IMG/VR virus record: IMGVR_UViG_3300021963_000475
Location: 1-29,764 of that record
Direction: 5' to 3' (one strand)
From: a virus
Taxonomy: Duplodnaviria; Caudoviricetes
Length of the DNA stretch: 29,764 nucleotides
Numbering within the stretch: the stretch's first letter is position 1; each line of letters starts with the position of its first letter. Of this stretch, positions 6,956 through 28,109 are shown in pieces. A model generated the notes under the pieces. That model was not told the DNA's origin. It saw only the letters and a list, made by a program, of their open reading frames with translations, and made no database searches. The translations under genes and the position numbers were made by a program.

Positions 6956-7974
6956 TGGCAAAGCCAGTTAAGAAGAATACTCCCGGCCCGTACGATACGC
7001 CGTTTATGACTAAACGCGAGCGTGAGCGTAAGGCTCAGCAGACTGCGCGTGGTGCTGTTGAGAGCGTTACTGATATTGAGAATCGGAGGCGGCGTGAGGA
7101 ACTTGCTGCTCAGGGGATTACTCAGTCGTTTCAGCAGATGCTTGCTCAGCAGGCGAATGCTCAGGCTAGTCGCCTTGCTGCTATTCAGGGTGCTGCTGGT
7201 GAGAATGTTGGTGCTGGTACTCTTGCTGCTTCGATTACTGGTACGACGCAGGCTGCTGATCTTGCGCCGCGTCTTGCCGCTGGCCGCGGTACGGAGATTC
7301 AGTCTGATGTTGCTGCTCGCGCGTCGCAGGCGCGTAAGGAGCGGGCACAGGATTTTCGCAAGTATTTGACGCAGGCTCGTGCTGATGTCGAAGCGGGCGA
7401 GCGCGAGAAGCAGGCGGCACAAATCGAATCTGCTGCTACGGCTAAGGCTTATGATCTCAAGTTGAAGGATTATGAGCGTGGTGTGTACGAGTCTGATCGT
7501 AAGTACGAACTTGATCTTGCTAAGTATGAAACGCAGTTGGCTAAGGCCGACACGGGTAAGATTGATGATCTTATCCCGACGTTTACTTCTATTGCTAAGG
7601 ACTCCGCATCTAAGAAGGGCACCGGTGGTTGGGAGGGTACGGTCACTTATACGGATTCCATTGATGGTAAGCAGAAGAAGATTGATGTCAAGGGTGTCGC
7701 GTTTGACCCGTCGAAGAAGACGGGCGCTCAGCGTGATGCGTTTTGGAAGAAGTATGTTGAGCAGAAGACTGGGGCTAAGGTCTCAGGCATCCCTGTCCGA
7801 AATGTTGAGCGCGGTTCTACTAAGCGTTCTCCTTCTGAGATCGCCAAGATGATGTTTGAATCGGCGGGTACGCTTGGTTCGTTTAGCGATGCTGAGATCT
7901 ATCAGGCTATTATGCGCACTCCGTTCGGCATGATGAATGCTGCTGCGGTGCGAGAGGCATATCAGGGGCTGTAG
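6955..7974 (+). CDS. Putative internal virion/ejection protein (coiled-coil, Ala/Gln-rich)
   Basis: Helical A/Q/E-rich N-terminal half. TAATG overlap. Directly precedes the largest gene. Confidence 0.55.
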   Translation: MAKPVKKNTPGPYDTPFMTKRERERKAQQTARGAVESVTDIENRRRREELAAQGITQSFQQMLAQQANAQASRLAAIQGAAGENVGAGTLAASITGTTQAADLAPRLAAGRGTEIQSDVAARASQARKERAQDFRKYLTQARADVEAGEREKQAAQIESAATAKAYDLKLKDYERGVYESDRKYELDLAKYETQLAKADTGKIDDLIPTFTSIAKDSASKKGTGGWEGTVTYTDSIDGKQKKIDVKGVAFDPSKKTGAQRDAFWKKYVEQKTGAKVSGIPVRNVERGSTKRSPSEIAKMMFESAGTLGSFSDAEIYQAIMRTPFGMMNAAAVREAYQGL

Positions 7975-7975
7975 A

Positions 7976-10900
7976 TTGCCCCCGCTTCCGCGTAACCCTA
8001 AGAGGGGGCCAATCGTCATTACGTCGGGGCCGGGCCGCCCTGCTCCTATTAAGAAGCAGCCACTCCCGGCTTACGGGCCGTACAAGTTGCCGCTTACGGA
8101 TGTTGAGAAGCGCATTGTTATTAAGAAGCGCACGCCTAAGTACATTGATACGCCGCAGGGGAGGATCGCTACTGGTGGTGGTGGCGTTGGATTCTTCACT
8201 AAGGGCGACAAGGGTAAGATCATGGGGCGCGTTCGTGAGCGTGCCATGGAGCGCGAGGGTGCGTTGCGCGACAAGGTTGAGCGTCAGCGCGTTGCTGCGT
8301 CGGAGCCTCGGCTTGCTGCTCCGCCGTTGCCTAGCCTGAAGAGCGTTGTTCGCGAAACGAAGAAGGAGGATTCTAACACGGGTTTTCTTGAGGGGCTTGC
8401 TGACGACATTGGTCTTGACGACTTTTATCGGGACAATGTTCTCCCGACGGTTGGTCGTGCTTTTGGTCAAATGTTTGAGAATGCGAAGGAAACGTATGGC
8501 GTTAGCGTTGTTGCTCCGGGCCTAAACATTGCTCGTACTGTTGCTGACGCTACGGGTGTTAGTGACAAGATTGATGAGCCGTTTGATTATGCAGCGAACC
8601 TTGTCAAGGGTGGTGCTGGTATCGCGAAGACGCAGGGCTTTGATCGTGCTAAGCCGTATGTTGCTGGTGTGATTGATGGTGCTTCGAAGTTAGGCAAGGG
8701 CGGAGTTGAGGCTGTTGGCAAGGTAGATGATTTCTTGCAGACAGAGGTCCCTGTTTACGATTCTGTGAAGACGTGGACTGATCGTAACGCTGTGCAGCCG
8801 TCAAAGGATGCGGCCGTTGAAGTGTTGTCGCGTGTGACGGATCAGCCGATCAATAAGCGTATCGATAAGGCTGATGAGTTTGATCGTAACTTTGTTTATC
8901 AGGCTAACGATATTACGCAGCGCGGGATGGAGCGCGAGACTGCTGCTCCTCAGGAGCGCCGTGATGTGTGGGTGCAGATGGCGCTTGGCGAGTTTGACGA
9001 TCCGGCTTGGGAGGGTTACAAGTCTCCGTTTACTCGCGAGCAGTTGGAGCGAATGTCGGATTACGAGTTGGCGAATGCTGCGTATGGTACGCATACGAGC
9101 ACGATTGCTTCGTTGTTTGAGGCTGCTAAGAATGATCTGAAGAAGATTGGCGCTATGCCTGCGGCGATTGGCGCGTTGTCGCGACAGATTCAGGACGCGA
9201 ATGACAAGGGTGATTTTCGCGGTCTTGGCAACATGGCGGAGTTCCTTGTTCGTCAGGGCGTGTCGAACATGGTGGCGCTTAGTAAGGCGAACTTGTATGT
9301 GATGACTGGCGGCAAGGCTGGTAATTATCAGGATCTTGTTCGTGCTTTGCAGGCTGAGCCGATTCTCACTGGTCTTGATGTTGCCTCCACGGCAACGATT
9401 TATGGCAAGGCCGCGACGTTTGGGTTGAAGTCTGGCGGCGCCCTTACTAAGGCTGGCGCTGTTGCTAGCCGCGTCCCGGGTGCCGTTCCTGCTGGCCGTG
9501 TTATTGCTCGTGGCGCTGAGGCTGCTGCCGCTCGTCCTATTGCCGGTGCTCCTCTTCGGGCTGCTGCTACGACTGGTCGCGGGTTGCGCCGTATTGCTGA
9601 TGTTGAGGAGGTTCAGGTTCGCGATCCAGCCATGGCTGCTGTCGGGGATATCGCTGGCGCAACGGTTGGTGCTGACCGCACGTTCAGGCCGTCCTCCTCG
9701 TTCTTCTCTAAGTCTGCTTCGCTTTTGCGCAAGCGGCTATACGAGGGGAACAATCCCGTTTCGCGTGCTATCTACAAGCGCGGAGAAGTCGCTGACGCTA
9801 GCAAGTTCCGCGCTATCGCGTCTGCTGTTGTCGAAGAGTTGGGAACTGAGCGTGCCGCTCCTGTCGTCAAGGCGTTCAAGGAGATCTTTGATGAGGATCC
9901 AAACGTGGCGTTGCGCGTCATGTGGGATCTCAGCGGTTCTGAATCTTTCAAGATGCCTGAGGGTCTTGGTGGTCGCGTTGTTGATCTGACTCCGGGTAAG
10001 CGTGCTGACGAGTTGGAGGGCGTACTTGCTGGGCAGTTGTGGGTTAGGCGCGGCGGCAAGGATGGCGATGATGCGTTTAGGTTTAGCGATGCTTCTCCGG
10101 GGGAGGGTTGGGCAAACGTTGTCACCAAGAAGCCTAAGGGTATGCCCAAGGGTACCGTTATTAAACTAAGTAAGATTGAGAAGGCGAACATTGAGCAGAG
10201 CATTCTGCTTCTTCGCAAGATTGACGAACTCCCAGAAGATGTTGTTGCACGCGCTAAGGAGCGCCTTGACGCTCCGTATCGTGAACAGTTTGGCGAAACG
10301 ATTGGTAAGCGGATTGGCGGGCGTAACGCCCCAGAGGGTTCGCTTACTGATGTTCTGCAGTTGCAGGAGTTGCAGAACATGCGGAGCCTTGATCGGCTCG
10401 GAGTAAATATCGACCCACGTATTGCTGATATTTCTCCGGGTGTACAGTCACGTTTGTCTGAGCGGTTCGGTATCGGGAAGCCGACGAGTATTGGGCGTCG
10501 TGATGTTGCTGGTATTGCTCGTCTTCAGGACGAGACAATCGCGCGTCTGATGCCGCTGGTTGGCGACGAGTTCCGGGCGGAGATTGAGAAGATTCTCTCT
10601 GAACAAAAACTAGAAGTATCTAAGCGTCTTGTTGATCTTGAAAATAAAAAGGTCGCTATTGAAAAATCCAAAGAGAACCTTTCGGAATTCGTTGACAACA
10701 TTGATGAACTTGACGCTGAGATTAGTTTGCTTGAGGAAAAACTTGGCGCACTGAATGCGGAAAACCCCGAGGTTGTGCAACTTACTCATCAAGAGGCTTG
10801 GCGGTTTGCGTCTAAGGCTGCTGATTTTTGGAAGAAGTTGTATGGGAAAGCAAATGGTGGCGCTGGGTCTGTCGACGCTCCGACTTGGAAAGATAGCCCA

Positions 10901-13900
10901 GTCACGAGTCCCGGAATTGTTCTCGGTATAAAAACGGGAGATGCAACGGGTAGTAATACTTCTGGGGTTTCTGGTTTCTGGACTGGTATTGACGGTGTCA
11001 AGCGCTATGTAAAGCAATATGCTGATCGGAATCAGGCTGTTGGCGAGGTCATCGCTAACGAGATCTATCGTCGTCTTAGTGCTGGCGCTCCGGTAAGCAA
11101 GATCACTTCAAAGTACAGTGACGATACTCAGTTTGTTGCTAACGACATTATCGACGTCTTCAAATTTGAGAAGTCGTCTTTTGATGTAGACGAAATTCAG
11201 CAGTTGTCGGAAAAAATTGTTGACCGTATTGTTGCTGATTTGTGGCTAGCGAATTGGGATGCGGTTGGAGTAGGCGGGGAAAACATTGGCATTACCGTCG
11301 AGACAAATATTCCCGTGCGCCTTGATCAAGGCGGTGCGCTGTTCCACCGTGCTCAGGGAGAACTAAAGACTAGTGCCCAACTGGATAACTTTAGTATTGA
11401 GGATTTTGTTACTCAGAATCCGAACTATAAGGCAGTGATTAACAATGCTGGGTACGAGAATGTCGCGGACATTGAGGGTCTTGGTCTCCAACTTCTTGCT
11501 ATCCATAAACTTATTGACGATTCTGGTGGCCTATCTCGTTTTGTCGACGATCTTACAAATGATCTTGACGTAAGCCAATCGTATAAAAGCGACCTCTACA
11601 ATCTTCTTGAGAGGAGGCTCGCCGTTCTTGACGAGCAAATCAGGATTTCTGATAACGACTTGGCGCTGTGGAAAAAGTCTTTTGCTAAGTCTGATGAAAC
11701 TGTTGGTGACGTTGGCGATGCCGACTTGCCTACGCTTACGCCTGCTCAAGTTTCGTCAATGAAAAGTTCTCTGAACTGGTATATGGGAAGTGGCTACTGG
11801 GATATCAACACTGCTCTTAGGGGAAGCAGTCCAATTAACAGCAGTGTTCAGAAGTCTATTGACAATATGGACAGCCTCTTTGATCTAGCACCTGTAACTG
11901 AAAAGCCTATGATTCTTTTCCGTGGTATTGGAGATCCGGGTACATACGATGATATTCAGGCTGGGGAGATTATTGCTGATAAGGGATTTCTTTCTACGTC
12001 GTTCAAGCCAATGACTGCTGAGGGTTTCGGTGGATCACAGGGTCAGAAGGGGATTGTTCTTGAGATTTATTTGCCTGAGGGGAGTAAGGCTGTATATGGG
12101 CATGGCGCTGCGCATGAGGGTACTGGGACGCTTAGCGCTACGTCTTTTGCTGGTGGCGAAAACGAAGTAATCCTTCCTCGCGGGACAGAGTTTTACATTA
12201 CGGATGTTGCGAATTATGGAAGTGGCGCCAAACTCGCTCGTGTTTATGCGATTACTCCGGGTAGCAAGTTCTCTATCGAAGATATTCCAGAGTTTGGTGG
12301 AACTAAGCAGAAGGGAATGATTGAGGAAGCGCTTCCGAAGAAGTTGGAAAAGAAGCAGTTGGCTGTTCAGGCGAAGAAGGCAATTGAGGATCAGTCTAAT
12401 TACGAGAGCGTTGTTGCTGATCTTGAGAATGCTAAGCGTGAATACACGGCTATTGACGACGCGTTGAAGGATATTGACATGATCGCTGAGTCGCTTATGC
12501 GTGACGTGATTGAGTCCGGCGCTATCCCAACTGGCGCTCGTGTGCATATCCCGACGCTTGGTAGTCCTAAGGGCGCTAAGAAGACTGTGCTTCCTAAGGA
12601 GGCGCTTGCTGGTCGTGGTCGTCCTCGCGACATGCTCAATATTTATACGGGGCAGTTTGCTTTGCTTGGTTCGGTTGAGGATCTTGAGCGGTTCTCTGGT
12701 GCTCTTGCGCGCAATCTCCGTATTCCGTTTGTTGCGTTTGAATCTGTTACTCGGTTTACTGATTACTTGATGCGTACCGGTACTACGATCAAGTTTTCTG
12801 GTGATAAGGCCGCGTTTAAGAAGCAGAAGGCTGATCTTCTTGAGGCTGGAATTATCAACGGCAATGGAGAACTTGGTTCTGATTATGTTGTTCTGCCGGT
12901 TAACGAGCAGACTGGTTTTCTTGATGCTGACTCTTTTGCCAAACTTGACTTCAAGAGGGCTGAGGAGGTTGGCACAAAGGGGCGTAGTGATGCTGGAGTT
13001 GATGACGCGCAGATTGCCGTGATCTTTGAAAAGGCCCTGAACGACAATGCGTTTGACAATCTTGATTCGATCAAGCCGGGAAGCCGCGTTGTCATTCTTA
13101 GCAAAAAGCGCCTTGATTCGTTGAAGAAGGAGATGGCTGCCGCCGCCGAGAGTCCCGGTCTATTGCGAAGGATCACTCGCCAGTGGGTTCGCTTTACTCT
13201 TACGACCCTCCCTCGTACTCCGATTGCGAATATCGCTGGCTCTGGTTTGTTGTCTGCACTCGGTGGTGGACTTGGCGGATACCCGGAGGCAATGCGTATG
13301 CTGCGTCGTGGTCAGGCTCCGCCAGAACTGTTGAACAATGGTTTGGCTGGTTCGTTTGACGAGGGTGGAGATCTCGTTATTGCTCCTGAGCGTGGCGCCA
13401 AGTTCCGTGGTGCCCAGCGTTACATGAACTACATCTATTACTACAACGTAATGGGCGAGGACCTTGCTCGCTTGTCAGTATTCATGCAGGCCATGAAGCG
13501 CGGCCTGAAGGACCCGAAGACTCGCGCCAAGATTGATGCTGAACTCAAGGAAGTAATGGATCTTAACGATTCCTTCCAGACCCTTCTTGAGGCTGTCTCT
13601 CGTGGAGAGTTTGCGAATGGCAAGGCGCTTACACCAGAGTTAATCAAGATTCGCGATAACGCTTTGCAGAAGGCTGATGATTTTCTTGGTGGCGCTCGCG
13701 GGTTGACGAGTCGTCAGCGTCTTGTTACTACTGCTGTCCCGTTCTGGATGTGGTACAAGCACATCTTCAAGTTGTACTTCTATACGCTTCCGTTCAAGTA
13801 TCCGGGTCGGTCGCTTGCCCTGAATGCGATGGCTCGCCTTGGCGCTGAGGAGTCTGCTCGTAATGGCTTCTACGATTCGTTCTACGAGGATGCAATTAAG

Positions 13901-14503
13901 GTTGGCGAAGAGGCGTTCGGTAGCAACATTTATTCCAAGGGGCTTGCTACCAACATCTTCCCGTTCAACTTTGGTGGCGCTCTTGAGTACGACGAGGGCG
14001 CTCCGGGTGTCCAGTTTGCGCTATCGAACATTGCCCCGACGATTACTGTTCCTGCTCGCCTCGCTGGTATTGGCATCCCGGGTGCTCCAGTCATTGGCGC
14101 TGGCGGAGAGCGCCTGAAGCCGGGCGACGTGTTCGCTCCGGGTTATGCTGAGGCTGCCGTATCTGAGGCGGAGAAGTTGTTTGCTCCCCTTGGTCTTGCC
14201 CAGAGCACACTCGCTCCGCGATCTAGTCTCATCTTTGATGCGTATCGTCTTGCCGCTGGTCAGCCGTTGCCTGAGGCGCAGCAGCGTGGTGAGGGTGAGC
14301 AGTACGCCGTCACTCCGCGTGGCGCTGCTGGCCTTGGGTTGCCGCAGTCTGTGCTTGATATGTTCATGCGCAGTTTTGGTTTGAGCGTTGTCCGCACGCC
14401 TGTCAGGGGGCCGGTTGCCGAGCGGCGCATTCGTGACGAGCAGGCTCGCCTTGAGGAGGAGGCGCGGAAGCGCTATCGCGAGAGCCTTGGGTTAGACTAC
14501 TAG
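7976..14503 (+). CDS. Very large internal virion (ejection/polyvalent) protein with inserted kinase-like and ADP-ribosyltransferase domains
   Basis: Probable TTG start at 7976, just after the upstream stop. Kinase-like motifs YVK, EVIANEIY, DLWLANWD..N, RLDQGG (about 10950-11630). R-S-E ART motifs Y..INTALRG, LFRG, FLSTS, ENEVILPRG (about 11735-12260). C-terminal PFWMWY region resembles large phage ejection proteins. Confidence 0.8.
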   Translation: MPPLPRNPKRGPIVITSGPGRPAPIKKQPLPAYGPYKLPLTDVEKRIVIKKRTPKYIDTPQGRIATGGGGVGFFTKGDKGKIMGRVRERAMEREGALRDKVERQRVAASEPRLAAPPLPSLKSVVRETKKEDSNTGFLEGLADDIGLDDFYRDNVLPTVGRAFGQMFENAKETYGVSVVAPGLNIARTVADATGVSDKIDEPFDYAANLVKGGAGIAKTQGFDRAKPYVAGVIDGASKLGKGGVEAVGKVDDFLQTEVPVYDSVKTWTDRNAVQPSKDAAVEVLSRVTDQPINKRIDKADEFDRNFVYQANDITQRGMERETAAPQERRDVWVQMALGEFDDPAWEGYKSPFTREQLERMSDYELANAAYGTHTSTIASLFEAAKNDLKKIGAMPAAIGALSRQIQDANDKGDFRGLGNMAEFLVRQGVSNMVALSKANLYVMTGGKAGNYQDLVRALQAEPILTGLDVASTATIYGKAATFGLKSGGALTKAGAVASRVPGAVPAGRVIARGAEAAAARPIAGAPLRAAATTGRGLRRIADVEEVQVRDPAMAAVGDIAGATVGADRTFRPSSSFFSKSASLLRKRLYEGNNPVSRAIYKRGEVADASKFRAIASAVVEELGTERAAPVVKAFKEIFDEDPNVALRVMWDLSGSESFKMPEGLGGRVVDLTPGKRADELEGVLAGQLWVRRGGKDGDDAFRFSDASPGEGWANVVTKKPKGMPKGTVIKLSKIEKANIEQSILLLRKIDELPEDVVARAKERLDAPYREQFGETIGKRIGGRNAPEGSLTDVLQLQELQNMRSLDRLGVNIDPRIADISPGVQSRLSERFGIGKPTSIGRRDVAGIARLQDETIARLMPLVGDEFRAEIEKILSEQKLEVSKRLVDLENKKVAIEKSKENLSEFVDNIDELDAEISLLEEKLGALNAENPEVVQLTHQEAWRFASKAADFWKKLYGKANGGAGSVDAPTWKDSPVTSPGIVLGIKTGDATGSNTSGVSGFWTGIDGVKRYVKQYADRNQAVGEVIANEIYRRLSAGAPVSKITSKYSDDTQFVANDIIDVFKFEKSSFDVDEIQQLSEKIVDRIVADLWLANWDAVGVGGENIGITVETNIPVRLDQGGALFHRAQGELKTSAQLDNFSIEDFVTQNPNYKAVINNAGYENVADIEGLGLQLLAIHKLIDDSGGLSRFVDDLTNDLDVSQSYKSDLYNLLERRLAVLDEQIRISDNDLALWKKSFAKSDETVGDVGDADLPTLTPAQVSSMKSSLNWYMGSGYWDINTALRGSSPINSSVQKSIDNMDSLFDLAPVTEKPMILFRGIGDPGTYDDIQAGEIIADKGFLSTSFKPMTAEGFGGSQGQKGIVLEIYLPEGSKAVYGHGAAHEGTGTLSATSFAGGENEVILPRGTEFYITDVANYGSGAKLARVYAITPGSKFSIEDIPEFGGTKQKGMIEEALPKKLEKKQLAVQAKKAIEDQSNYESVVADLENAKREYTAIDDALKDIDMIAESLMRDVIESGAIPTGARVHIPTLGSPKGAKKTVLPKEALAGRGRPRDMLNIYTGQFALLGSVEDLERFSGALARNLRIPFVAFESVTRFTDYLMRTGTTIKFSGDKAAFKKQKADLLEAGIINGNGELGSDYVVLPVNEQTGFLDADSFAKLDFKRAEEVGTKGRSDAGVDDAQIAVIFEKALNDNAFDNLDSIKPGSRVVILSKKRLDSLKKEMAAAAESPGLLRRITRQWVRFTLTTLPRTPIANIAGSGLLSALGGGLGGYPEAMRMLRRGQAPPELLNNGLAGSFDEGGDLVIAPERGAKFRGAQRYMNYIYYYNVMGEDLARLSVFMQAMKRGLKDPKTRAKIDAELKEVMDLNDSFQTLLEAVSRGEFANGKALTPELIKIRDNALQKADDFLGGARGLTSRQRLVTTAVPFWMWYKHIFKLYFYTLPFKYPGRSLALNAMARLGAEESARNGFYDSFYEDAIKVGEEAFGSNIYSKGLATNIFPFNFGGALEYDEGAPGVQFALSNIAPTITVPARLAGIGIPGAPVIGAGGERLKPGDVFAPGYAEAAVSEAEKLFAPLGLAQSTLAPRSSLIFDAYRLAAGQPLPEAQQRGEGEQYAVTPRGAAGLGLPQSVLDMFMRSFGLSVVRTPVRGPVAERRIRDEQARLEEEARKRYRESLGLDY

Positions 14504-15089: not shown

Positions 15090-15322
15090 GCGACGAAAAC
15101 GTTAGCGTCATCTTGCATCGCCTTGAGGAGATGGACAAGAGGCTTTGTGAGATCCACGAAGAGGTAAAGAAGACCAATGGTCGTGTAACTTCTTTGGAGA
15201 TTGAGAATGCTAAGTGGAAGGGATTCTCTGAGGGGCGTCGTATTCACGGTATGATCGCGGCCAGTGTTATTAGCGGTGGAATCCTTGCTGCTATGATCTG
15301 GTTTGTTACTACGGCTATCTAG
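15086..15322 (+). CDS. Holin-like membrane protein (coiled coil plus C-terminal TM)
   Basis: KKTNGRVTSLE coiled-coil motif, hydrophobic C-terminus, upstream of the endolysin. Confidence 0.55.
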   Translation: MSDENVSVILHRLEEMDKRLCEIHEEVKKTNGRVTSLEIENAKWKGFSEGRRIHGMIAASVISGGILAAMIWFVTTAI

Positions 15323-15343
15323 TACACCCCAACTGGAGAAGAG

Positions 15344-20782: not shown

Positions 20783-21509
20783 TGGTGGCGATCTCCTCTA
20801 GATCCTTGATGATTTTGGCTTCGTTGTTCTCAACGTACTCGGCCGGGGTGTCTTCGGTGGGCTTGGCCTGATCCTTGACCCACGCTTCGATGTCGCGCGC
20901 CACGTCGGGGTGCTTACCTACCTGCTCTGCGAACAGTTCGAAGGTGGTTGCGGTGTCGTCGATGATGCCGCGGATCTTTAGAACCTGCTTGATCTTATCC
21001 CGCTTTGCCTTGCTCCAGCCCTTGGCCTGCGTCAAGACATGATCGCTGGGGGATGGCTCTGGTGCGGCTGTCTCCAGATCGTTCTTGCTCCAGAGGTTCA
21101 AGGCTACGCCGAACCGCATGGCTGCGTTGCGGATGCCATCGCCGATGATCTCTTTGATGAGGTCGCCGTCGGTGCGGCGGTCATTCGGTTCGACGCTGCC
21201 GTAGCCGATGCGGCTGTGGTCAAAGATGCAAAGCCTGATCCACATGCCGATGGGTCGCCCGTCTGCGTTGCGGTCAAGGATCGGGGATCCGTTGTCGTCT
21301 CGTCCGAGGGGGTACCAGTCCCAGAGCGGGTCGTGGCGGAGCAGCATCTCCGTGACGGCGGCGTGCCCGACGTACGAAAGATTAGTTCCACCCTTTGGCT
21401 TCGTCTCTACGAGGCTCGGGTGCGGGGTGCGGAGGTCGTCGTGCAGTTCGCGTAGCGCCTTGATGCGCTCAGCGTCTGGCAGGTCGGGGGCGTCAACGTA
21501 TTCCGGCAT
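20775..21509 (-). CDS. Rad52/Sak-like ssDNA annealing protein
   Basis: LSYVGHA.V..L..DP.W.W and KE.IGD.IRNAAMRFGVALNLWSK. Adjacent to the exonuclease and SSB. Confidence 0.8.
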   Translation of the reverse strand: MPEYVDAPDLPDAERIKALRELHDDLRTPHPSLVETKPKGGTNLSYVGHAAVTEMLLRHDPLWDWYPLGRDDNGSPILDRNADGRPIGMWIRLCIFDHSRIGYGSVEPNDRRTDGDLIKEIIGDGIRNAAMRFGVALNLWSKNDLETAAPEPSPSDHVLTQAKGWSKAKRDKIKQVLKIRGIIDDTATTFELFAEQVGKHPDVARDIEAWVKDQAKPTEDTPAEYVENNEAKIIKDLEEIATNE

Positions 21510-21930
21510 TGTTCTTTCTCCTTTGGCACTCTTCGATGTGCCTGTTGATTGCGTCCCTGTTCCACATGGGTCGCTTCTTTTGGGGCGTGCTCATTACGAA
21601 CAGCGGTGGTGGTACTCGGTGCCCGTGGTTTAGGTGCCCGGGCTTTGGTAGGTGGACGCTGTACTTGTCGCACATGCGTCTGGCCTCGTCGTAACTGATT
21701 AGGTCTGTGAAGTCTTTGGGTAGAAACTTCTCTGCTCCGTGGTGGTCTTTGACGACGTAGCCGCTTGCTGGTCTGTCGTCGCATGCGCAGTAGAACTTGT
21801 CTTCTTTCTTATAGTACAACTTGTCTGCTGCTGAGAAGTGCTTGTAGATGTGCGGCTTGCCGCCACGGTTCTTTACCTTGGGCGCGTTCATCGTGCCCTT
21901 GATGTAGAGCCTGCTACTCGTCTGATTCAA
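21493..21930 (-). CDS. Hypothetical protein
   Basis: Overlaps both neighbours within the operon. Basic protein. Confidence 0.55.
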   Translation of the reverse strand: MNQTSSRLYIKGTMNAPKVKNRGGKPHIYKHFSAADKLYYKKEDKFYCACDDRPASGYVVKDHHGAEKFLPKDFTDLISYDEARRMCDKYSVHLPKPGHLNHGHRVPPPLFVMSTPQKKRPMWNRDAINRHIEECQRRKNNAGIR

Positions 21931-22318
21931 AGATCAAACTCTCCCATCTCATCATCGGTCGTCGATGGCACTCCGGCCTGTCGGACCTGACGTACTCGTC
22001 GGTCGGCACGATGGCTCCATCCTTCGCTGCCTTCCTCATGACTGCTCCCATCGCTCGCGGTTCGTGTGTCTTGAACTGCGGGAAGAGGATGGAGATTTTC
22101 TGCCACACGTTGTCAGTCGTAAAGAACTGCTGGTCTTCTGCGACGAGTCGGCATGCGAGGTATGCAGCCTCCGCCCAGTCTGGGTCGGCGTTACGTTCCA
22201 CCCTGTCGATGGCTTCGTCTCGCGCCTGCGTTGCGGCGTTGATGCCGTGCGGAGTGTGGACGAGCGGCACCCCGTGCGAGCGGAGGATGTCTTCGACTGT
22301 CATCTGCTCGTCAGGCAT
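21914..22318 (-). CDS. Hypothetical phage protein (possibly wHTH)
   Basis: Likely start MPDEQ at 22318. FTTD.VW..HEPRAMGAV..A pattern. Confidence 0.6.
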   Translation of the reverse strand: MPDEQMTVEDILRSHGVPLVHTPHGINAATQARDEAIDRVERNADPDWAEAAYLACRLVAEDQQFFTTDNVWQKISILFPQFKTHEPRAMGAVMRKAAKDGAIVPTDEYVRSDRPECHRRPMMRWESLIFESDE

Positions 22319-22718
22319 TGTCCATACCTGCGATGCAGACGTAGCCGTCGGCGATGCTGCCGCCAATCGGCGTGATGTACAGGCTGTTCGATCCCGACGT
22401 GCTGGCCGTTACGCGAGCGTTGCCGTGGACGTGGTCTGCGATACGGCGCAGGTCGATATGCTCGCTTGGCTGGTCGATCCAGTTGATCGTCTCCTCCGGA
22501 TCGACGACGAGGATGGAGACGATGATCGACTCATCCCTTGCTGCGAATCCGAAGCGGGCGAGCATGTCCCGCGTCATGGCCGTGGCCACGTTGTTGATCG
22601 TGTTGATCTCGCTGGCGAACGTGCTCATGCGCTCTGCGATCTGCGCCTCTGTGAATGTCATGTCGTCCGGGTCTGGGGTGCGGTCGTACTCGTCCTGCTC
22701 GCGAATGTGCATTGCCAT
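22311..22718 (-). CDS. Hypothetical protein
   Basis: GAGG RBS, sits within the operon. Confidence 0.6.
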   Translation of the reverse strand: MAMHIREQDEYDRTPDPDDMTFTEAQIAERMSTFASEINTINNVATAMTRDMLARFGFAARDESIIVSILVVDPEETINWIDQPSEHIDLRRIADHVHGNARVTASTSGSNSLYITPIGGSIADGYVCIAGMDNA

Positions 22719-22721
22719 GTC

Positions 22722-22910
22722 TTACCTCTTTCTTTCGATGATGTAGTGCTCCGTATGGCCAGAGCGCTTGATGAACGTGACTTTCCCTTTCTTGTTCATC
22801 AGGTCGTGAGCCTCGCTTGTCGTTGCGACAACGTGTTCGGTGTTGCCGATCCAGACGTAGGCGAGGCTTCCCAAGTTGGGGCGGGTGATGCTAGCGGGTG
22901 TCTGCTGCAT
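22722..22910 (-). CDS. Hypothetical protein
   Basis: 62 aa, co-oriented, ends 3 nt before the next start. Confidence 0.5.
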   Translation of the reverse strand: MQQTPASITRPNLGSLAYVWIGNTEHVVATTSEAHDLMNKKGKVTFIKRSGHTEHYIIERKR

Positions 22911-22961
22911 AGTCGTATGGTAGTTGAGGTTTCTTACCTCAGATGTTTGGTGTTTGTAAAT

Positions 22962-23057
22962 CTTGGCACCCCTCTGGCTGCGGGGAAGGGGACGCGGCCA
23001 GAGGGGGAGAGACAGCCACTTGTCTCATCAGCGGCGAGAAGGGGAGCCGCTGCCAAG
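22962..23057 (-). ncRNA. Four-way-junction structured RNA with two UCCCCUUCYC loops
   Basis: P1 22962-68/23051-57. P2 22969-82/22993-23006. P3 23009-14/23021-26. P4 23031-35/23046-50. The two 10-nt loops are nearly identical. Strand is assumed from the flanking genes. Confidence 0.65.
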
Positions 23058-23100
23058 TTGAGCAGGCACACCCTACCTGCGTGCGCCTATCGTAGCAGGC

Positions 23101-23256
23101 TTACGCCTTGCTGTCTGGATTCTCTTTGGCCGGGCTTGTCGGAAACTTGCTATCCATTTTGCTTGGGAAGTTTTCCGTTAGCCAAGAGCGGTAGTCGCGA
23201 CCGCCGTCGAAGTCGATGTATCGAACGGTTCTCTTGGTGGTCTTCTTCTTGTCCAT
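23101..23256 (-). CDS. 51-aa hypothetical protein (not in the ORF track)
   Basis: MDKKKTTKRTVRYIDFDGGRDYRSWLTENFPSK..KA*. Starts 2 nt after the upstream stop. Confidence 0.55.
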   Translation of the reverse strand: MDKKKTTKRTVRYIDFDGGRDYRSWLTENFPSKMDSKFPTSPAKENPDSKA

Positions 23257-23258
23257 GG

Positions 23259-23606
23259 CTAAATCATATCACCCCACGTTGTGTCATCGATAACGCGGTC
23301 GTCAATGTAGAGCATGTCGATCCACACACGGTGGTATGCGGCGAGGTGCCGCTCGTCACTGATAGAAGACTTGAAGTTATCGTAATCAATGTCGTTGGTG
23401 ATCTTGGCAACGAATGCTGCCCAGCGTTCGCGGCTGCATTCCATGCGGTGCGGGTAGTCGGCGTTCTCGTCCGTCCACCATACGCCGCTTGTCTCATTGG
23501 CTGCGTTGATGATGTCGTCCTTGCAGCGTGCGCGTACCAGTAGCACGTTCGGGTTGTCGCGGTGTTCGACGACGGAGAAGAATCCTAGTTTTGTCATCAG
23601 CCACAT
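23259..23606 (-). CDS. Conserved hypothetical phage protein
   Basis: GGAGG RBS before MWLMTKLGFFSVV..LLVRAR..ADYPHR..IDYDNFK. Confidence 0.7.
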   Translation of the reverse strand: MWLMTKLGFFSVVEHRDNPNVLLVRARCKDDIINAANETSGVWWTDENADYPHRMECSRERWAAFVAKITNDIDYDNFKSSISDERHLAAYHRVWIDMLYIDDRVIDDTTWGDMI

Positions 23607-23809
23607 GGCTTGTCCTCCTCCGGGTTCTGGCGGTAGTAGATCTCCAGCATCAGGTCGGGCAACTTCTCGTCGCCGTCCTGCGATGCCTCGTACAGTGCGC
23701 GGTTCTCCTCCGGCGTGAGGTCGTCCGCATCGATGATGAGCATGTCGTGCGCTGCGCATCCGCCATGCGAGTGATCAGCCATGTTGTACCACAGGATATT
23801 CTTGGTCAT
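23597..23809 (-). CDS. Hypothetical protein
   Basis: AGAAGGA RBS before ATG 23809. Confidence 0.6.
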   Translation of the reverse strand: MTKNILWYNMADHSHGGCAAHDMLIIDADDLTPEENRALYEASQDGDEKLPDLMLEIYYRQNPEEDKPCG

Positions 23810-23839
23810 GTTTTTGTTCCTTCTGTCGGGTGCGGATCT

Positions 23840-23877
23840 CACCCCCGCCCGGAGTGATGGATAGTCGGGCGGGGGTG
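23840..23877. terminator. 12-bp GC hairpin (terminator-like or processing/stability stem)
   Basis: CACCCCCGCCCG/CGGGCGGGGGTG perfect inverted repeat with a 14-nt loop, 7 nt after the DUF932 stop. No U-tract. Confidence 0.5.
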
Positions 23878-23884
23878 GATTCGG

Positions 23885-24877
23885 TTAGGCGGCGAGCGCC
23901 ACCGCCACGCTGCGATCCTTCAGCGTGATGGACTGGTTGGCACCGAGCAGGTTCTTGTCGATGAACTTGTCGTCGGAGCGGTGCGTCTTGCTCCAGTCGA
24001 CGTACTCGGCGACGGCCTGCACGAATCCCCACTTGGTGTGCTTCACGTTGGCGAGGTTGTCCACGTCCCATGCGGTGTGGATGGCGTCGCGCGTGTTCTG
24101 TGCGATGGTAAGGCCGCGCGTGGACTCGTCGTCCTTGGGGGTCGGGAGCGGGACGAGCATCTCCAGCATGCGGTCGAACGAGATGCGGTTGATCGGCTGC
24201 GCGATGAGCGTGTCGCCGAGCGTCTGCAGTTCGTCGAAGTAGGCGTTACTGAAGCCGAGCATGTCACGCGCGTCGCGCACCTTGTCGGTCACGTTCGGCG
24301 TGTGCCGCCCCTTCCACATGTTCTTGGCCTCCTTCATGCTCCACTGCAGCGTGTTCTGGCAGACCACCCGGATCGGCGTGGTGTACACGCTGAGTGCGGT
24401 GTTGCCGTCGTGCCCGTTGCAGAGGGTGACGTAGGGGTCGATGCGCTCGTCGGGGTCGCCGCCGATCAGGATGTCCCTGTTGAGGCGGGCGAGCGCCCAG
24501 ATCTTGCGCCCGTTGTAGAGGCTACCGGCGGTGTGATAGTGCGCGTCGCCCTTGCCGATGATCTCGTCGAAGAAGTCGAAGGCGTCGACGTTCTGGATCA
24601 CCTTGTAGTGCGGGGTGACGATGCCGAGCGCCTCGCCCGTGTCCATGCGGACGTTCGCGACCTTGTTCGGGATCAGCGTGGTGGTGTCGGGCATGTCGTC
24701 GCCGTTGGGGATGTGGACGTGAATGTCGTGCTGTTCCACCGTCCAGTCCAGTCCGGCGAGGCTGATGGCCTCCGCGCTGGTGACCACGTCGGCGTCGATG
24801 ACGGTGCCGAGGCGGTGCCATGCGGGCTCGCGGTTTCCGTAGAACGCTTTGTCGTGCTCCATGATGCCGTGGCTCAT
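23885..24877 (-). CDS. DUF932 / phage-plasmid-like protein (TIGR03299-like)
   Basis: R.PAWH.LG, AGLDW.V, Y.VIQN..AF, AGSL..GR..W, N.HDG, TPIRVVCQNTL, RHT. Confidence 0.88.
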   Translation of the reverse strand: MSHGIMEHDKAFYGNREPAWHRLGTVIDADVVTSAEAISLAGLDWTVEQHDIHVHIPNGDDMPDTTTLIPNKVANVRMDTGEALGIVTPHYKVIQNVDAFDFFDEIIGKGDAHYHTAGSLYNGRKIWALARLNRDILIGGDPDERIDPYVTLCNGHDGNTALSVYTTPIRVVCQNTLQWSMKEAKNMWKGRHTPNVTDKVRDARDMLGFSNAYFDELQTLGDTLIAQPINRISFDRMLEMLVPLPTPKDDESTRGLTIAQNTRDAIHTAWDVDNLANVKHTKWGFVQAVAEYVDWSKTHRSDDKFIDKNLLGANQSITLKDRSVAVALAA

Positions 24878-24885
24878 GTCGTGCT

Positions 24886-24950
24886 CCCTTCTGTTGGTGT
24901 ACCCATAGTGTGGCACAAGATTGTGGGTTGTTTTGTAAATACTTTGTGAG
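24886..24950 (-). promoter_or_regulatory. Repeated early promoter/leader cassette, copy A
   Basis: CTCACA-N5-TTTACA, CACAATCTTGTG palindrome, CACACT -10-like hexamer, TACACC, AGAAGGG. Confidence 0.75.
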
Positions 24951-24959
24951 TATTTACCG

Positions 24960-25044
24960 GGGAACCGCGCTGCTCAACGAGGGCAGATTATTCGGGCCTA
25001 ACCATTCCCGATTTTGACCCCGTGGTTAGCGGGTCGTGGTTCCC
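24960..25044 (-). ncRNA. Four-way-junction RNA with a 7-bp loop-loop kiss
   Basis: Closing stem 24960-68/25036-44. Hairpins at 24970-86, 24992-25011 and 25016-35. Loops CTAACCA (24998-25004) and TGGTTAG (25023-29) are complementary. Strand is uncertain. Confidence 0.65.
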
Positions 25045-25077: not shown

Positions 25078-25138
25078 CCGCAGACACCCCCGTCGTGGCG
25101 GGTGTTTCGTCCGGCGCTCATCAGTGCGGGATGCCGGA
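25078..25138 (-). ncRNA. Type I hammerhead ribozyme (1-bp stem II plus pseudoknot)
   Basis: UCCGGC-AUC-CCGCA-CUGAUGA-G-CGCCGGA-C-GAAA-CACCC-loop-GGGUG-UC^UGCGG. Full core, stems I and III, GUC triplet, and loop II GCCGGA pairing with 5' UCCGGC. Confidence 0.92.
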
Positions 25139-25147
25139 TGTTTCGTG

Positions 25148-25582
25148 CTAGTCCTCTTCGACGTGCGTCACTTCTGCGTCGTAGTACTCCACCTCTGTGT
25201 CGATGGAGTCGTAGTGGCTCACGTCGATGCTGTCGACTCGGCCGAGCGCCTCGTCGCGGGCGTCGTCCTCACCGTTGGCCTCCACCTGAAAGGTGATCGT
25301 GACGGGCACGTTGACGGTCACGTTGTACGTTTTCGTCAGGCTGATGCCGACGAGGGTGCGGACGAGGTCGGCGCGGTCGTCGTCGCCGCCGGCCCAGTTG
25401 CGCAGGTCGTCGATCCAATCGGCCTCGCAGTCCTTCGCGAAGGGTGCGAAGACATCAGCGATCAGGCTGCGGAGCATTCCGATGGTGTCGTCCTTGCGCA
25501 TGCTCTTTTCCTTGAGCAGGTGGATCTCTGCGCGGAGGATCTCCGGGTCGGCGGTGTCGGTGGTGGTGATGGTGTCGGTCAT
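25148..25582 (-). CDS. Hypothetical acidic protein
   Basis: GAGAAGGG RBS before ATG 25582. VEA..ED.A.D.A motif is common in small early phage proteins. Confidence 0.7.
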   Translation of the reverse strand: MTDTITTTDTADPEILRAEIHLLKEKSMRKDDTIGMLRSLIADVFAPFAKDCEADWIDDLRNWAGGDDDRADLVRTLVGISLTKTYNVTVNVPVTITFQVEANGEDDARDEALGRVDSIDVSHYDSIDTEVEYYDAEVTHVEED

Positions 25583-25590
25583 GGTGTAGA

Positions 25591-25656
25591 TCCCTTCTCG
25601 TGGTGTACTTACAGTGTGCCACAAGATTGTGGCTTGTTTTGTAAATCCTTTGTAAG
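25591..25656 (-). promoter_or_regulatory. Repeated early promoter/leader cassette, copy B
   Basis: CTTACA-N5-TTTACA, GCCACAATCTTGTGGC palindrome, CACACT, TACACC, GAGAAGGG. Confidence 0.78.
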
Positions 25657-25658
25657 GA

Positions 25659-25883
25659 TTATTCGGCGTCGTCCGGGTAGTCGTAGTCTCCGGCGTATTC
25701 GTTACGCATTGCCGTGGTATGCGCCTCGCTGATCAGTCGCCGAAGTTCCCAGATCATGGTGCGTTCCGGGTTGATCGACGCCGGGGTATTAGTTAGCAGG
25801 GTCAGTCCGTCGATGATGGATGCCATCTCGCGGATGGTCAGTGTGTCGGCGATGATGTCGTGCCGCTTCTCTGTAGTGCTCAT
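25659..25883 (-). CDS. Hypothetical protein
   Basis: GAGAAGGGG RBS before ATG 25883. Confidence 0.65.
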   Translation of the reverse strand: MSTTEKRHDIIADTLTIREMASIIDGLTLLTNTPASINPERTMIWELRRLISEAHTTAMRNEYAGDYDYPDDAE

Positions 25884-25895
25884 ATCTGAATCGTA

Positions 25896-25933
25896 CCCCT
25901 TCTCTAGTGTCTCGTTTGTACGGATTTTGTTAG
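25896..25933 (-). promoter_or_regulatory. Partial cassette, copy D (no palindrome)
   Basis: CTAACA-N5-CGTACA..ACACTAGAGAAGGGG. Confidence 0.45.
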
Positions 25934-26745
25934 GGCTGCTGCAGGAATCCGTGCCGCGTACCCTCCTGCCCACGCATGCGCCCCTTCGCGCGTAGCCCGA
26001 CGATCACGCCGCCCGGGTCAGTGAATCGGAGATCGTGCGCATCACCGTCGACGACGGCGTACGTGTCGCCCCATGGTGCCGTCCACGTTGCGGGCAGCGG
26101 TGCACCCTTGCGCGTCGCGAATACCACGGCCACCCGGTAGCCCGCGTCAAGATACCGGCGTGCTGCTACGCCATCGCCGCCGGGATACGAATACGTCACG
26201 TCGATGCCGTGCTCGGCCGCGTCGGGCGTCGGTCGCTTTGTGTAGTCGTACAGGACGCATCCCTCCGCGATTGCGTGCGCGATCACCTCCGGGAACTTGC
26301 GGTGCCATACGATGTCCGACGTGCCGTTCAGCCGCAGGGCAGGCGTCAAGCCGTGCCGCCTAGCGTTGCGGGCGTGAAGCGTGATCTCGTGGCGCAGGCG
26401 GGCGCTGAACGCGTCCGGGTTGAGGATCATGGCCGCCGTGCGACGGATCCGGCTAGCCTGTATCGCGTTCCACCCGCTAGCGTCAAGGCTGATACCGCCC
26501 CTGCCGCTAGTGTTCAGGCACCCGGCGGTGCACTCAGTACTAGCCCACGGGCAGACATTCGCGCCCGACATAGTGGCGGGTGCGAGGTGCAGGACGGCGG
26601 GCAGGTAGCCCATATCCGCCGCTCCCTTTGCGACCTTCGGGTTCGTGGTGGTCAGCAGCCGCCCGGCCGACTTGACCGGGTAGTGCGTATCGATTGCGGC
26701 TACCGTCGCATTGACGGCGCGTAGTACGAGATTGCTGTAAGCCAT
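25930..26745 (-). CDS. GP88-like (mycobacteriophage gene product 88) protein, radical-SAM-like Cys cluster
   Basis: N.K..K, LAPA..SG..VCP.A...C...CL..SGRG, RLNGTSDI, YDYTK, DGD..DLRF.D..IVGL.AKG. Confidence 0.78.
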   Translation of the reverse strand: MAYSNLVLRAVNATVAAIDTHYPVKSAGRLLTTTNPKVAKGAADMGYLPAVLHLAPATMSGANVCPWASTECTAGCLNTSGRGGISLDASGWNAIQASRIRRTAAMILNPDAFSARLRHEITLHARNARRHGLTPALRLNGTSDIVWHRKFPEVIAHAIAEGCVLYDYTKRPTPDAAEHGIDVTYSYPGGDGVAARRYLDAGYRVAVVFATRKGAPLPATWTAPWGDTYAVVDGDAHDLRFTDPGGVIVGLRAKGRMRGQEGTRHGFLQQP

Positions 26746-26751
26746 TCCGAT

Positions 26752-26818
26752 TCCCCTTCGTTCGGTGTAGTCACACTGTACCGCACGATTGCGGCACGGT
26801 TTGTAAGTATTTTGTAAA
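26752..26818 (-). promoter_or_regulatory. Repeated early promoter/leader cassette, copy C
   Basis: TTTACA-N5-CTTACA, CCGCAATCGTGCGG palindrome, TACAGT, TACACC, GAAGGGGA. Confidence 0.75.
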
Positions 26819-26910
26819 GATTCGCGGCCGGCCACCCCCCCTAATCGAAGGCGCACTCCTCCCTTCCTCCTGCCCTCCGGGCGCACTCCGAACCGCCTAG
26901 CCTATCCAAA

Positions 26911-26953
26911 GGGGAGCGCCGGGAATCGAACCCGGCAAGGCCAGCCACTCCCC
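26911..26953 (-). ncRNA. tRNA-like minihelix (acceptor stem plus T arm; no D or anticodon arm)
   Basis: GGGGAGUG-GCUGGCCUUG-CCGGG-UUCGAUU-CCCGG-CGCUCCCC. Canonical T loop, 5-bp T stem, 8-bp acceptor-like stem. Confidence 0.7.
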
Positions 26954-27079: not shown

Positions 27080-27396
27080 GCCGCCACCGCCATACGCGCC
27101 GCACGGTGCGCCCACTTCTCCCGGGATCCCTCCCGATACCCGCCACGCTTACCGTGCTGAGACTTGCCAACCGGCCGCGCCTTGCACGCCCACGCAGGCA
27201 CCCGCGCATCCGGCAACACCGTCACCGTGAACACGCGCCCATCGATCACCCGGAACCCCGCACCCGCAGGCACCGGCACGCCATCACGCTGCACGCCCAC
27301 GAACCGGCCACCCGCACCGCGCAGCATCACGCCACCACCAAAGGCGGCCACCCCCGTGGGGGAGATCATGCCGTCACCCCGCTTTGCAACCTTCAT
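27076..27396 (-). CDS. Hypothetical protein, first gene of the leftward operon
   Basis: TACACC..GGAAGGGG leader before ATG 27396. Confidence 0.6.
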   Translation of the reverse strand: MKVAKRGDGMISPTGVAAFGGGVMLRGAGGRFVGVQRDGVPVPAGAGFRVIDGRVFTVTVLPDARVPAWACKARPVGKSQHGKRGGYREGSREKWAHRAARMAVAA

Positions 27397-27402
27397 CCTG
27401 CA

Positions 27403-27476
27403 CCCCTTCCATTCGGTGTAACCACACCATACCACACCCCAACCCCCCCAAACCAAACCCTAACAAAACCCTTACA
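27403..27476 (-). promoter_or_regulatory. Cassette copy E (upstream box inverted)
   Basis: TGG-TATGGT extended -10, TACACC, GGAAGGGG. CTAACA-N5-CTTACA lies on the + strand at 27460-27476. Confidence 0.5.
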
Positions 27477-27989
27477 ACCCCAACCCGCCGAGGTGTTGGG
27501 AGGGTACGCGCGCGCGACGCCCACGCCCGAGCGAGAACCCCACCCAACGCGCCCGACCGTGTACCCATCCTCGGTCAGGTTTTTTTGTGGGTAAGGGGTT
27601 TGTGTAGGCTGCTTCTTGCGTTGGGCGGGTCGGGTATGTTCTGGATGATACTGGTGTGGGGGATATTCTTTGCCCCTCCCTAGCCTTTGGGCTAGCCAAC
27701 GTCCGTTTAGCGTGCTTGTTGTCCCTGCACGATCCGACCTAGCCGTTTCCGGGGTTGTTTGTCTGGCCGTCCGATGGAAGTCCGTGGTGCGGTTGCTTCG
27801 TCGGTGCTCCGGCTAGACGCGGAGGCTGGTGCCTTGACCCTTGAGCGTGGGTGTGGGGCTTGTGTGTAAAGAGTATCATGCTCTTTGTTCAATGATGTGT
27901 GTGCGTTTTGCACATTGTCGTGCTTGTTTGTGTGTTGGTGTTCGACATATCGTGCGAATGATCGTTATTTCGTGTATGGTTCTCGCATT

Positions 27990-28071
27990 GGCGGGATGGC
28001 GGAACTGGTAGACGCAGCAGACTCAAAATCTGCCGCCATGTGGCGTAAGGGTTCGATTCCCTTTCCCGCTA
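27990..28071 (+). tRNA. tRNA-Leu(CAA)
   Basis: Acceptor GGCGGGA/TCCCGCT+A, D loop with TGGTAGAC, anticodon arm GCAGA-CTCAAAA-TCTGC, long variable arm CGCCA/TGGCG, T arm AAGGG-TTCGATT-CCCTT. CCA is not encoded. Confidence 0.93.
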
Positions 28072-28109
28072 TTTGTTCTGTTCTATTAAAAATGCTTTAG
28101 GAGAACAAA

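Follow-up and report, generated by a model that had tools for sequence, protein, structure and literature searches.

A conserved four-way-junction RNA in related phages, predicted to act as an antisense regulator of early genes

The phage sequence analysed here (the window, i.e., the whole stretch of DNA, a virus record of 29,764 bases with an estimated completeness of 79%) carries an element of about 120 nt on its - strand, which consists of an extended -10 promoter motif, a 5' hairpin, and a four-way junction. It is a conserved structured RNA gene for which the comparative support for the strand is good, and it was found in 12 distinct related phage loci including the window, using pattern scans and scans with the flanking proteins. 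The sequence-only reading of this DNA had described a four-way junction whose two loops are complementary to the phage's own early ribosome binding sites (RBSs), and this was borne out: the - strand adopts the fold, and the five RBS motifs it quoted (5/5) lie on the - strand upstream of ATGs. According to loop and RBS sequences across the relatives, the element is probably a phage-encoded, trans-acting antisense RNA, which silences the phage's own early gene class by pairing of its loops with the RBSs. It is a new variant of multi-loop phage antisense RNA that is absent from Rfam.

Genome context

The + strand of the window contains genes for tail fibres, a 2188-aa protein, a CHAP endolysin, and a holin. 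The 2188-aa product (7937-14503, +) is likely a virion protein and possesses an Alt-like ADP-ribosyltransferase domain at residues ~1273-1433. The genes on the - strand, running from 27.4 kb to 17.4 kb, include GP88, DUF932, a single-strand annealing protein (SSAP), a PD-(D/E)XK exonuclease, SSB, and a RuvC-like resolvase. A tRNA-Leu(CAA) gene is located at 27989-28072 (+). The label "early" is our assignment from gene arrangement and refers to the block above 23.1 kb, in which small genes follow repeated promoter-RBS cassettes (three 70-nt copies and four 34-nt copies); "middle" refers to the block below the element, and "late" to the opposite strand. The early promoter cassettes at 24885-24954, 25591-25660, and 26753-26822 (-) have common TTTACAAA repeats and an inverted repeat, CCACAA...TTGTGG, just upstream of the -10, which is a possible operator for a protein.

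Four complete relatives have genomes of 37.6-39.8 kb. The one integrase type sought separately, tyrosine integrase (PF00589), was found in none of the four, and no integrase, repressor, or antirepressor family was detected in the subset of ORFs scanned (40 from the window and 30 from relative G001). The phage clade is apparently lytic. An actinobacterial host would fit the extended -10 motifs, the likely leaderless gene, and the lysin, which is of the PG-binding/CHAP kind. In the host search, no SSAP relatives were found in genome contigs, and the DUF932 proteins found there were distant only (28-45%).

Structure and strand of the element

The extent of 22962-23057 proposed in the sequence-only reading holds for the junction but leaves out 23062-23097, where the promoter motif and the conserved 5' hairpin lie. 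The extended -10 motif TGnTACGAT occupies 23089-23097 (-), and its spacing places the predicted sRNA start at ~23082. A motif of the form TGnTAC(G/C)(A/C)T precedes the 5' loop by 13-19 nt in 12/12 loci, while on the opposite strand all 12 lack a TANNNT at distances of up to 38 nt from the element; a sigma-70 scan missed these extended -10 promoters. The 5' hairpin P0 (23062-23080, -) displays the loop UAGGGUGUG (23067-23075), which contains GGUGU, the complement of the ACACC found in early leaders. GGGUGU is present in all 12 loci, and the P0 stem keeps its pairing in 35/35 cells over the seven loci of the architecture termed type A below.

The four-way junction (22962-23057, -) is closed by P1 (23052-23057 with 22962-22967) and comprises P2 (23030-23051), P3 (23007-23029), P4 (22969-23006), and one unpaired U at 22968; this geometry (0,0,0,1 unpaired) is identical in 7/7 type-A loci. 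Loop 1, UCCCCUUCUC (23036-23045, -), is the complement of GAGAAGGGG(A), and loop 2, UCCCCUUCCC (22983-22992, -), is the complement of GGGAAGGGGA; both differ between lineages. Directly downstream, a putative promoter-like cassette (22910-22960, -) with TTTACAAA at 22953-22960, a -10-like TACCAT at 22917-22922, and an ATG at 22910 marks the 3' boundary of the element. This ATG lies six bases past the -10 and has no SD pairing (-0.3 kcal/mol), and its message is likely leaderless. No U-tract terminator was seen after the element. The element is read as a free-standing sRNA gene, predicted to be ~120 nt long and to start near 23082.

The - strand of 22962-23057 folds with -51.3 kcal/mol (z -5.62; 0/200 shuffles equally stable), and the + strand with -59.0 kcal/mol (z -5.74). 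The strand is undecided by folding energy alone, because the + strand folds equally well. It is fixed as the - strand by the pairing record: with positions anchored on the junction, all 203 cells of the type-A core (29 positions in seven loci) pair, as 190 Watson-Crick pairs, 13 G-U, and 0 A-C. The junction was located from the - strand fold of each sequence, which leans to that strand, and positions were then read stepwise, so that mismatches would show; this count was used in place of the one that forces type-B rows onto the type-A model, which is inflated. At least two different Watson-Crick pair types occur at 15/29 core positions, some of the P4 cases possibly through small shifts. In the distal P4 there is one A-C mismatch on the - strand of the window (G-U on +) and one A-C pair in 4/5 type-B loci. 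Across the 12 loci, each - strand fold has 1-6 G-U pairs and 0-2 A-C mismatches.

Two other interpretations of this region were rejected. ORFs cross the element (22934-23071, -; 22943-23095, +; 22011-23543, +), but its type-A homologues differ in length by 1 and 4 nt, and the element is therefore considered non-coding. A CUGAUGA inside the junction was tried as a hammerhead core, but no GAAA follows it and it is not conserved.

Homologous loci

The 12 loci show two architectures and fall into about four independent lineages according to the trees. Type A comprises seven loci (the window, L095, L096, L098, L108, L106, and L113), in which a 5' hairpin with loop UAGGGUGUG is followed by a junction carrying two pyrimidine loops. 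Type B comprises five loci (L104, L111, L102, L099, and L103), in which the GGGUGU hairpin is itself a junction arm, the next arm bears a single loop, AUCCCUUCCC, and P1 has just 3-4 pairs. The junction core is common to both types (GA...UC, CCC...GGG, and one unpaired U). Several contigs are known under two names (L090/L095, L087/L096, L093/L098, L094/L106, and L089/L102) and were counted once. Identity to the two closest relatives is 97-98% within the element and 86-87% in the DNA around it.

A covariance model built for type A recovered 10 type-A places (seven distinct loci) at 75-136 bits and four type-B places at 16-18 bits, missing L102/L128 and L103. It had no match in L115-L118, whose SSAP is 45-52% identical, nor in L100, L105, and L109, which have too little upstream DNA. 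An exact two-loop pattern scan returned 75 stretches, including four true homologues, all from close relatives, the remainder being repeats or chance; a promoter-plus-hairpin scan returned two stretches, one an already-found locus and the other a chance match in an unrelated virus contig. A blastn search against 50,697 annotated phage records gave 12 short matches with E values of 3-9, none of them meaningful. One locus, L099 (540-1000), is a mosaic with a type-B RNA, an SSAP that groups with those of type-A phages, and a hammerhead directly after the element; the RNA module appears to have been exchanged between lineages.

Early leaders of the window

A typical early leader consists of ACACC, 2-5 bases, an SD variant, and the ATG, with ACACC six bases past a -10-like hexamer. 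Five such leaders on the - strand are predicted targets. The leader at 27396-27419 has ACACC at its putative +1, GGAAGGGG at 27403-27410, and an ATG at 27396, with an 8-nt complement to the loops; that of the GP88-family gene (26745-26768) has ACACC, GAAGGGGA at 26752-26759, and an ATG at 26745, again with an 8-nt complement. The leader at 25883-25911 carries ACACU and GAGAAGGGG (25896-25904) before an ATG at 25883 and has the longest of these complements, 9 nt. At 25582-25606, ACACC is followed by GAGAAGGG (25592-25599; 8-nt complement), a second ACACC, and an ATG at 25582. In the leader of the DUF932 gene (24877-24900), ACACC is followed by AGAAGGG (24886-24892; 7-nt complement) and an ATG at 24877.

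Of the complements of at least 8 nt to the window loops on the - strand, four out of five lie at early RBSs and one lies within a gene; on the + strand there is one outside the element. Composition-shuffled loops equalled the observed 5/8 leaders (at least 7 nt) in 277/5000 trials, and two of the eight early leaders have 4-nt loop matches only. The loop-RBS match in the window is marginal when taken alone, and the case rests on the relatives. Against the eight window leaders, a host-type anti-SD makes Watson-Crick runs of 4-6 nt, and the element loops make runs of 4-9 nt. For the five predicted targets, the best duplex with a C/U loop has -11.6 to -16.6 kcal/mol and that with the 5' loop -5.8 to -8.0, as computed for free loops, ignoring geometry. 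Two of three leaders folded were nearly unstructured (-3.2 and -4.2 kcal/mol).

The endolysin leader (15318-15343, +) contains ACACCCC and GAGAAG, both seeds at 6 nt. These seeds are retained in G002 and G004 and absent from G001, G003, and G005, and this leader is a possible secondary target through which lysis timing might be affected.

Loops and RBSs across lineages

Co-variation of loops and RBSs in related phages had been proposed in the sequence-only reading as a check, and by the rank of the cognate assignment it holds for the phages' early genes, while the L102 leaders and loop 1 of L098 depart from it. Compared by eye, the window has the RBS GAAGGGG and the loop CCCCUUC; L113 has the RBS CGGAAGGA and the loops CCUUCCG and UCCUUCC; L106 has the RBSs GAAAGGA(A/G) and GGAGGGA and the loops UUCCUUUC and UCCCUCC; L104/L111 have the RBS GGAAGGGA or GGAAGGAA and the loop UCCCUUCC.

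When loops were assigned to early leaders in all possible ways for five sets, the cognate assignment ranked 1/120 with a curated list. That list was made from the automatic one by dropping starts considered internal or duplicated and by manually adding three in the window and one in L104. With starts from a single automatic gene caller, a home-made one that overlooks or wrongly places some of them, the cognate assignment ranked 2/120 by Watson-Crick run, and 4/720 when G005 was added (six genomes); because of the relatedness of the genomes, none of these ranks can be taken as a clean p-value. The same automatic calls gave 97/120 and 414/720 for middle genes and 18/120 and 82/720 for late genes. 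With four lineages, the automatic early rank was 2/24 or 1/24, and late genes reached 2/24 in one set.

The class counts point in the same direction, although Fisher values for them overstate, given the relatedness of the genomes: in the six genomes, loop matches of at least 6 nt occur at 29/49 early, 8/52 middle, and 13/145 late starts, and after the same SD filter at 26/35 early versus 8/37 other starts. ACACC is present at 21/49 early versus 14/197 other starts in these genomes. The ACACC-GGUGU match is 5 nt long and has almost no variation on either side, which leaves no room for covariation, and ACACC might be no more than a motif for transcription start. In L104, early leaders do not start with ACACC, and it is found between the SD and the ATG in four cassettes, a placement which suggests that ACACC is kept for more than transcription start.

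Several observations do not follow the cognate pattern. In L102, the early RBS is now GGGAGGGA while the loop is unchanged, so that pairing with its own loop runs only through a G-U, and the leaders make longer runs with the L106 loops (mean 7.4) than with the L102 loop (5.2). The L113 leaders also fit the L106 loops better on average (6.5 vs 5.7). In L098, loop 1 (GCGCCUUGCCC) has lost its RBS match, the RBSs being unchanged. Taken together, these sequence comparisons give fair support for early RBSs as the targets of the element.

Comparison with known RNAs

Rfam 15 at the gathering cut-off reported only the tRNA in the window, L089, L093, and L094. No match was obtained on the element in L108, L103, and L099 at E <= 2, and the best match on the window element was NRF2_IRES, on the + strand, at 24.6 bits compared with a cut-off of 50. 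The P4 CI RNA and the HK022 put RNA are analogues.

Among the closest known systems is the C4 RNA of phages P1 and P7 (RF01695), which, as predicted for the element, is a phage-encoded, multi-stem, trans-acting antisense RNA with one loop for the RBS and another for an upstream site. In C4, loop b' covers the RBS and loop a' binds the upstream site, and a few changed bases between relatives shift its specificity, as described in part of PMC5320573. The two kinds of loop have sequence counterparts in the predicted phage targets here, the C/U loops matching early RBSs and GGUGU matching ACACC. However, C4 has three stems and is released by RNase P, whereas in the element a 5' hairpin and a four-way junction come straight after a promoter motif of its own; the presence of this motif immediately upstream in 12/12 loci suggests a primary 5' end, unlike that of C4. 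In addition, C4 holds down one antirepressor operon for lysogeny, whereas the element matches at least five unrelated early leaders; the element varies between lineages in its RBS loop, not in the upstream loop as in C4; and phages with the element have no tyrosine integrase (0/4 complete relatives), unlike the temperate setting of C4. The RF01695 covariance model gave no match at E <= 1 in the one genome searched (0/1), 14 control genomes also having none over the cut-off, and cmscan of 21000-25000 at E <= 5 returned no C4. The element would work like C4 without belonging to that family.

The sequence-only reading had drawn a comparison with actinobacterial 6C and alphaproteobacterial cuckoo RNAs, which is useful for the possible way of working and does not extend to membership, as judged from the Rfam model and the loop motif. 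According to the part of PMC6486639 considered, the C-rich loops of 6C RNA inhibit translation by base-pairing with G-rich RBSs and need neither Hfq nor another chaperone. The element likewise has C-rich loops for G-rich RBSs, repression being predicted in its case, but differs from 6C (Actinobacteria, RF01066) in being phage-borne, in having loops that vary with lineage, and in lacking six-C loops: the window loops have at most 4 consecutive C, compared with six conserved C in 6C. The RF01066 model had no match at E <= 1 (0/1), with matches in 2/14 controls and none over the cut-off (0/14). The cuckoo RNAs carry a fixed CCUCCUCCC in 2-4 adjacent hairpins with anti-SD-like loops (PMC4615179, in part). 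Similar to these, the element shows an anti-SD-like loop on several hairpins, but its loop sequences are different, variable, and set within a closed junction, and CCUCCUCCC is absent from the loops of nine loci. Membership in C4, 6C, and cuckoo was therefore rejected, with no RF01695 or RF01066 match and no cuckoo loop motif.

In cluster K mycobacteriophages, repeated extended RBS motifs termed SAS precede non-structural genes, and the portion of PMC3203893 considered leaves open whether the partner is RNA or protein. The early leaders studied here are comparable in kind to SAS tags and different in sequence, and their genome also encodes a candidate for the RNA partner. Literature searches turned up no description of this RNA, although the catalogue of PMC10690425, with 10,006 candidate RNAs from viruses, may already contain it; the portion covered of a 2025 review of phage sRNAs (PMC12197685) describes no class-wide anti-early RNA.

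Proposed function and alternative explanations

According to the proposed mechanism, the sRNA would be made early, from a host-type promoter on the - strand at the end of the early block. Its structure would stabilise it, and build-up during infection would impose a delayed negative feedback on the early genes. The C/U loops would pair with early RBSs and block ribosome binding on the short leaders, while the invariant GGUGU of the 5' loop, by sequence match, may pair with ACACC at the leader start or just past the SD. Each junction arm would present one seed, and a chaperone might not be needed, as for 6C RNA. Middle and late genes would escape through other SD variants or lack of a leader.

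A more ambitious version of this proposal is tentative: the element may act as a class-wide early-to-middle switch by RNA alone, in which a two-part address on every early message (ACACC and a lineage-specific RBS variant) is read by separate arms of one junction RNA. If address and loops drift together, the RNA would in addition shut down superinfecting phages that share its lineage, but not those of another, creating RNA-coded exclusion groups without a repressor.

To our knowledge, shut-off of the often toxic early genes in lytic phages is known for only a few phages, with mostly protein-based mechanisms. If the antisense reading is correct, it would widen the principle of C4, which governs a single lysogeny operon, to the control of a whole temporal class via a common, co-evolving RBS tag, and would offer a concrete answer to the open question of an RNA partner for SAS in mycobacteriophages. 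The natural loop/RBS variants are ready-made orthogonal pairs.

Four alternatives were weighed against early-gene silencing. The one that survives best, still an unlikely one, is a general anti-Shine-Dalgarno weapon against host messages, similar to 6C and cuckoo, whose match to phage early genes arises as both track host SD usage; host mRNAs were the other target that the sequence-only reading had allowed. The loops resemble the 16S tail, those of L106 containing UCCUUUC and CCUCCU, and seeds of 7-8 nt are expected in many host leaders; 6C RNA itself acts on many G-rich host RBSs (PMC6486639, in part). However, host SD usage as the driver predicts that middle and late genes follow the shift, which they do not, and a host silencer whose seeds best fit the phage's own early genes would silence those first.

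Action in cis on its own transcript, as a terminator, a processing site, or a put-like antiterminator heading the recombination/replication operon, with incidental loop matches, is improbable. The element does start at the putative +1 of a promoter facing the SSAP-exonuclease-SSB-RuvC operon, P4 is a long G+C hairpin, and a U-tract terminator was not seen. Against a cis role, a second promoter-like cassette follows the element directly, L099 has a hammerhead and an early-type cassette in place of the usual one, and the lineage-specific loop-RBS matches would be left unexplained.

Pairing that protects or activates the early leaders, by shielding the 5' ACACC from nucleases or by storing messages, is less probable still. 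The extreme 5' end of the presumed early transcripts does have a complement in one of the loops, and the early block has other RNA-processing elements (a hammerhead and a tRNA-like minihelix), but the main seeds cover the SD itself, and such pairing blocks initiation in the systems cited (PMC5320573 and PMC6486639, each in part).

Finally, the idea that the + strand is transcribed, with SD-like loops as a ribosome decoy (an RBS mimic, as the sequence-only reading had allowed), or that the structure acts as single-stranded DNA, is very improbable: the + strand of the window folds no worse than the - strand and turns one A-C mismatch there, and one such site in type B, into G-U, but the G-U excess over A-C on the - strand, in the type-A core and across the 12 loci, suits the G-U tolerance of RNA, and the promoter motif is on the - side only (sense extended -10 in 12/12 loci, antisense TANNNT in 0/12).

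Neighbouring RNA elements

The early block of the window also contains a type I hammerhead ribozyme (25078-25140, -) with CUGAUGA, GAAA, a GUC site, a one-pair stem II, and a likely pseudoknot to the 5' side; it scores 29.4 bits with the RAGATH-1 hammerhead model, below the cut-off of 56.3. The hammerhead is present in 6/10 other loci examined, and its core is changed to CUGAAGA in L102.

A tRNA-like minihelix at 26912-26952 (-) has an acceptor stem and a T-arm, the anticodon arm being missing, and reaches 26.9 bits with the mascRNA model, below the cut-off. Its acceptor stem changes in step in L095, L098, L106, and L113, and it is a possible RNase P/Z processing site. Directly after it, a purine-rich element (~26850-26885, -) consists of a GCCC-GGA-GGGC hairpin and then AGGAGGAAGGG; it is found in all six type-A loci that reach that far and in 0/5 type-B loci. 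With ~7 nt of complementarity to the C/U loops, it might act as a decoy, either for the sRNA or for ribosomes.

In type B, a TTTCCTTCCTTCCTTAG tract upstream of the early genes (L104, 3745-3761; L111, 1143-1159) is a 12-nt complement of their common leader, and a local stem is predicted to take up part of this tract; it is possibly a second anti-RBS RNA. The type-B early genes of L104 (3870-5130) are preceded by repeated T-arm-like hairpins ending in CCA/TCA, then a small hairpin and the RBS, and these hairpin repeats are processing cassettes that replace promoters.
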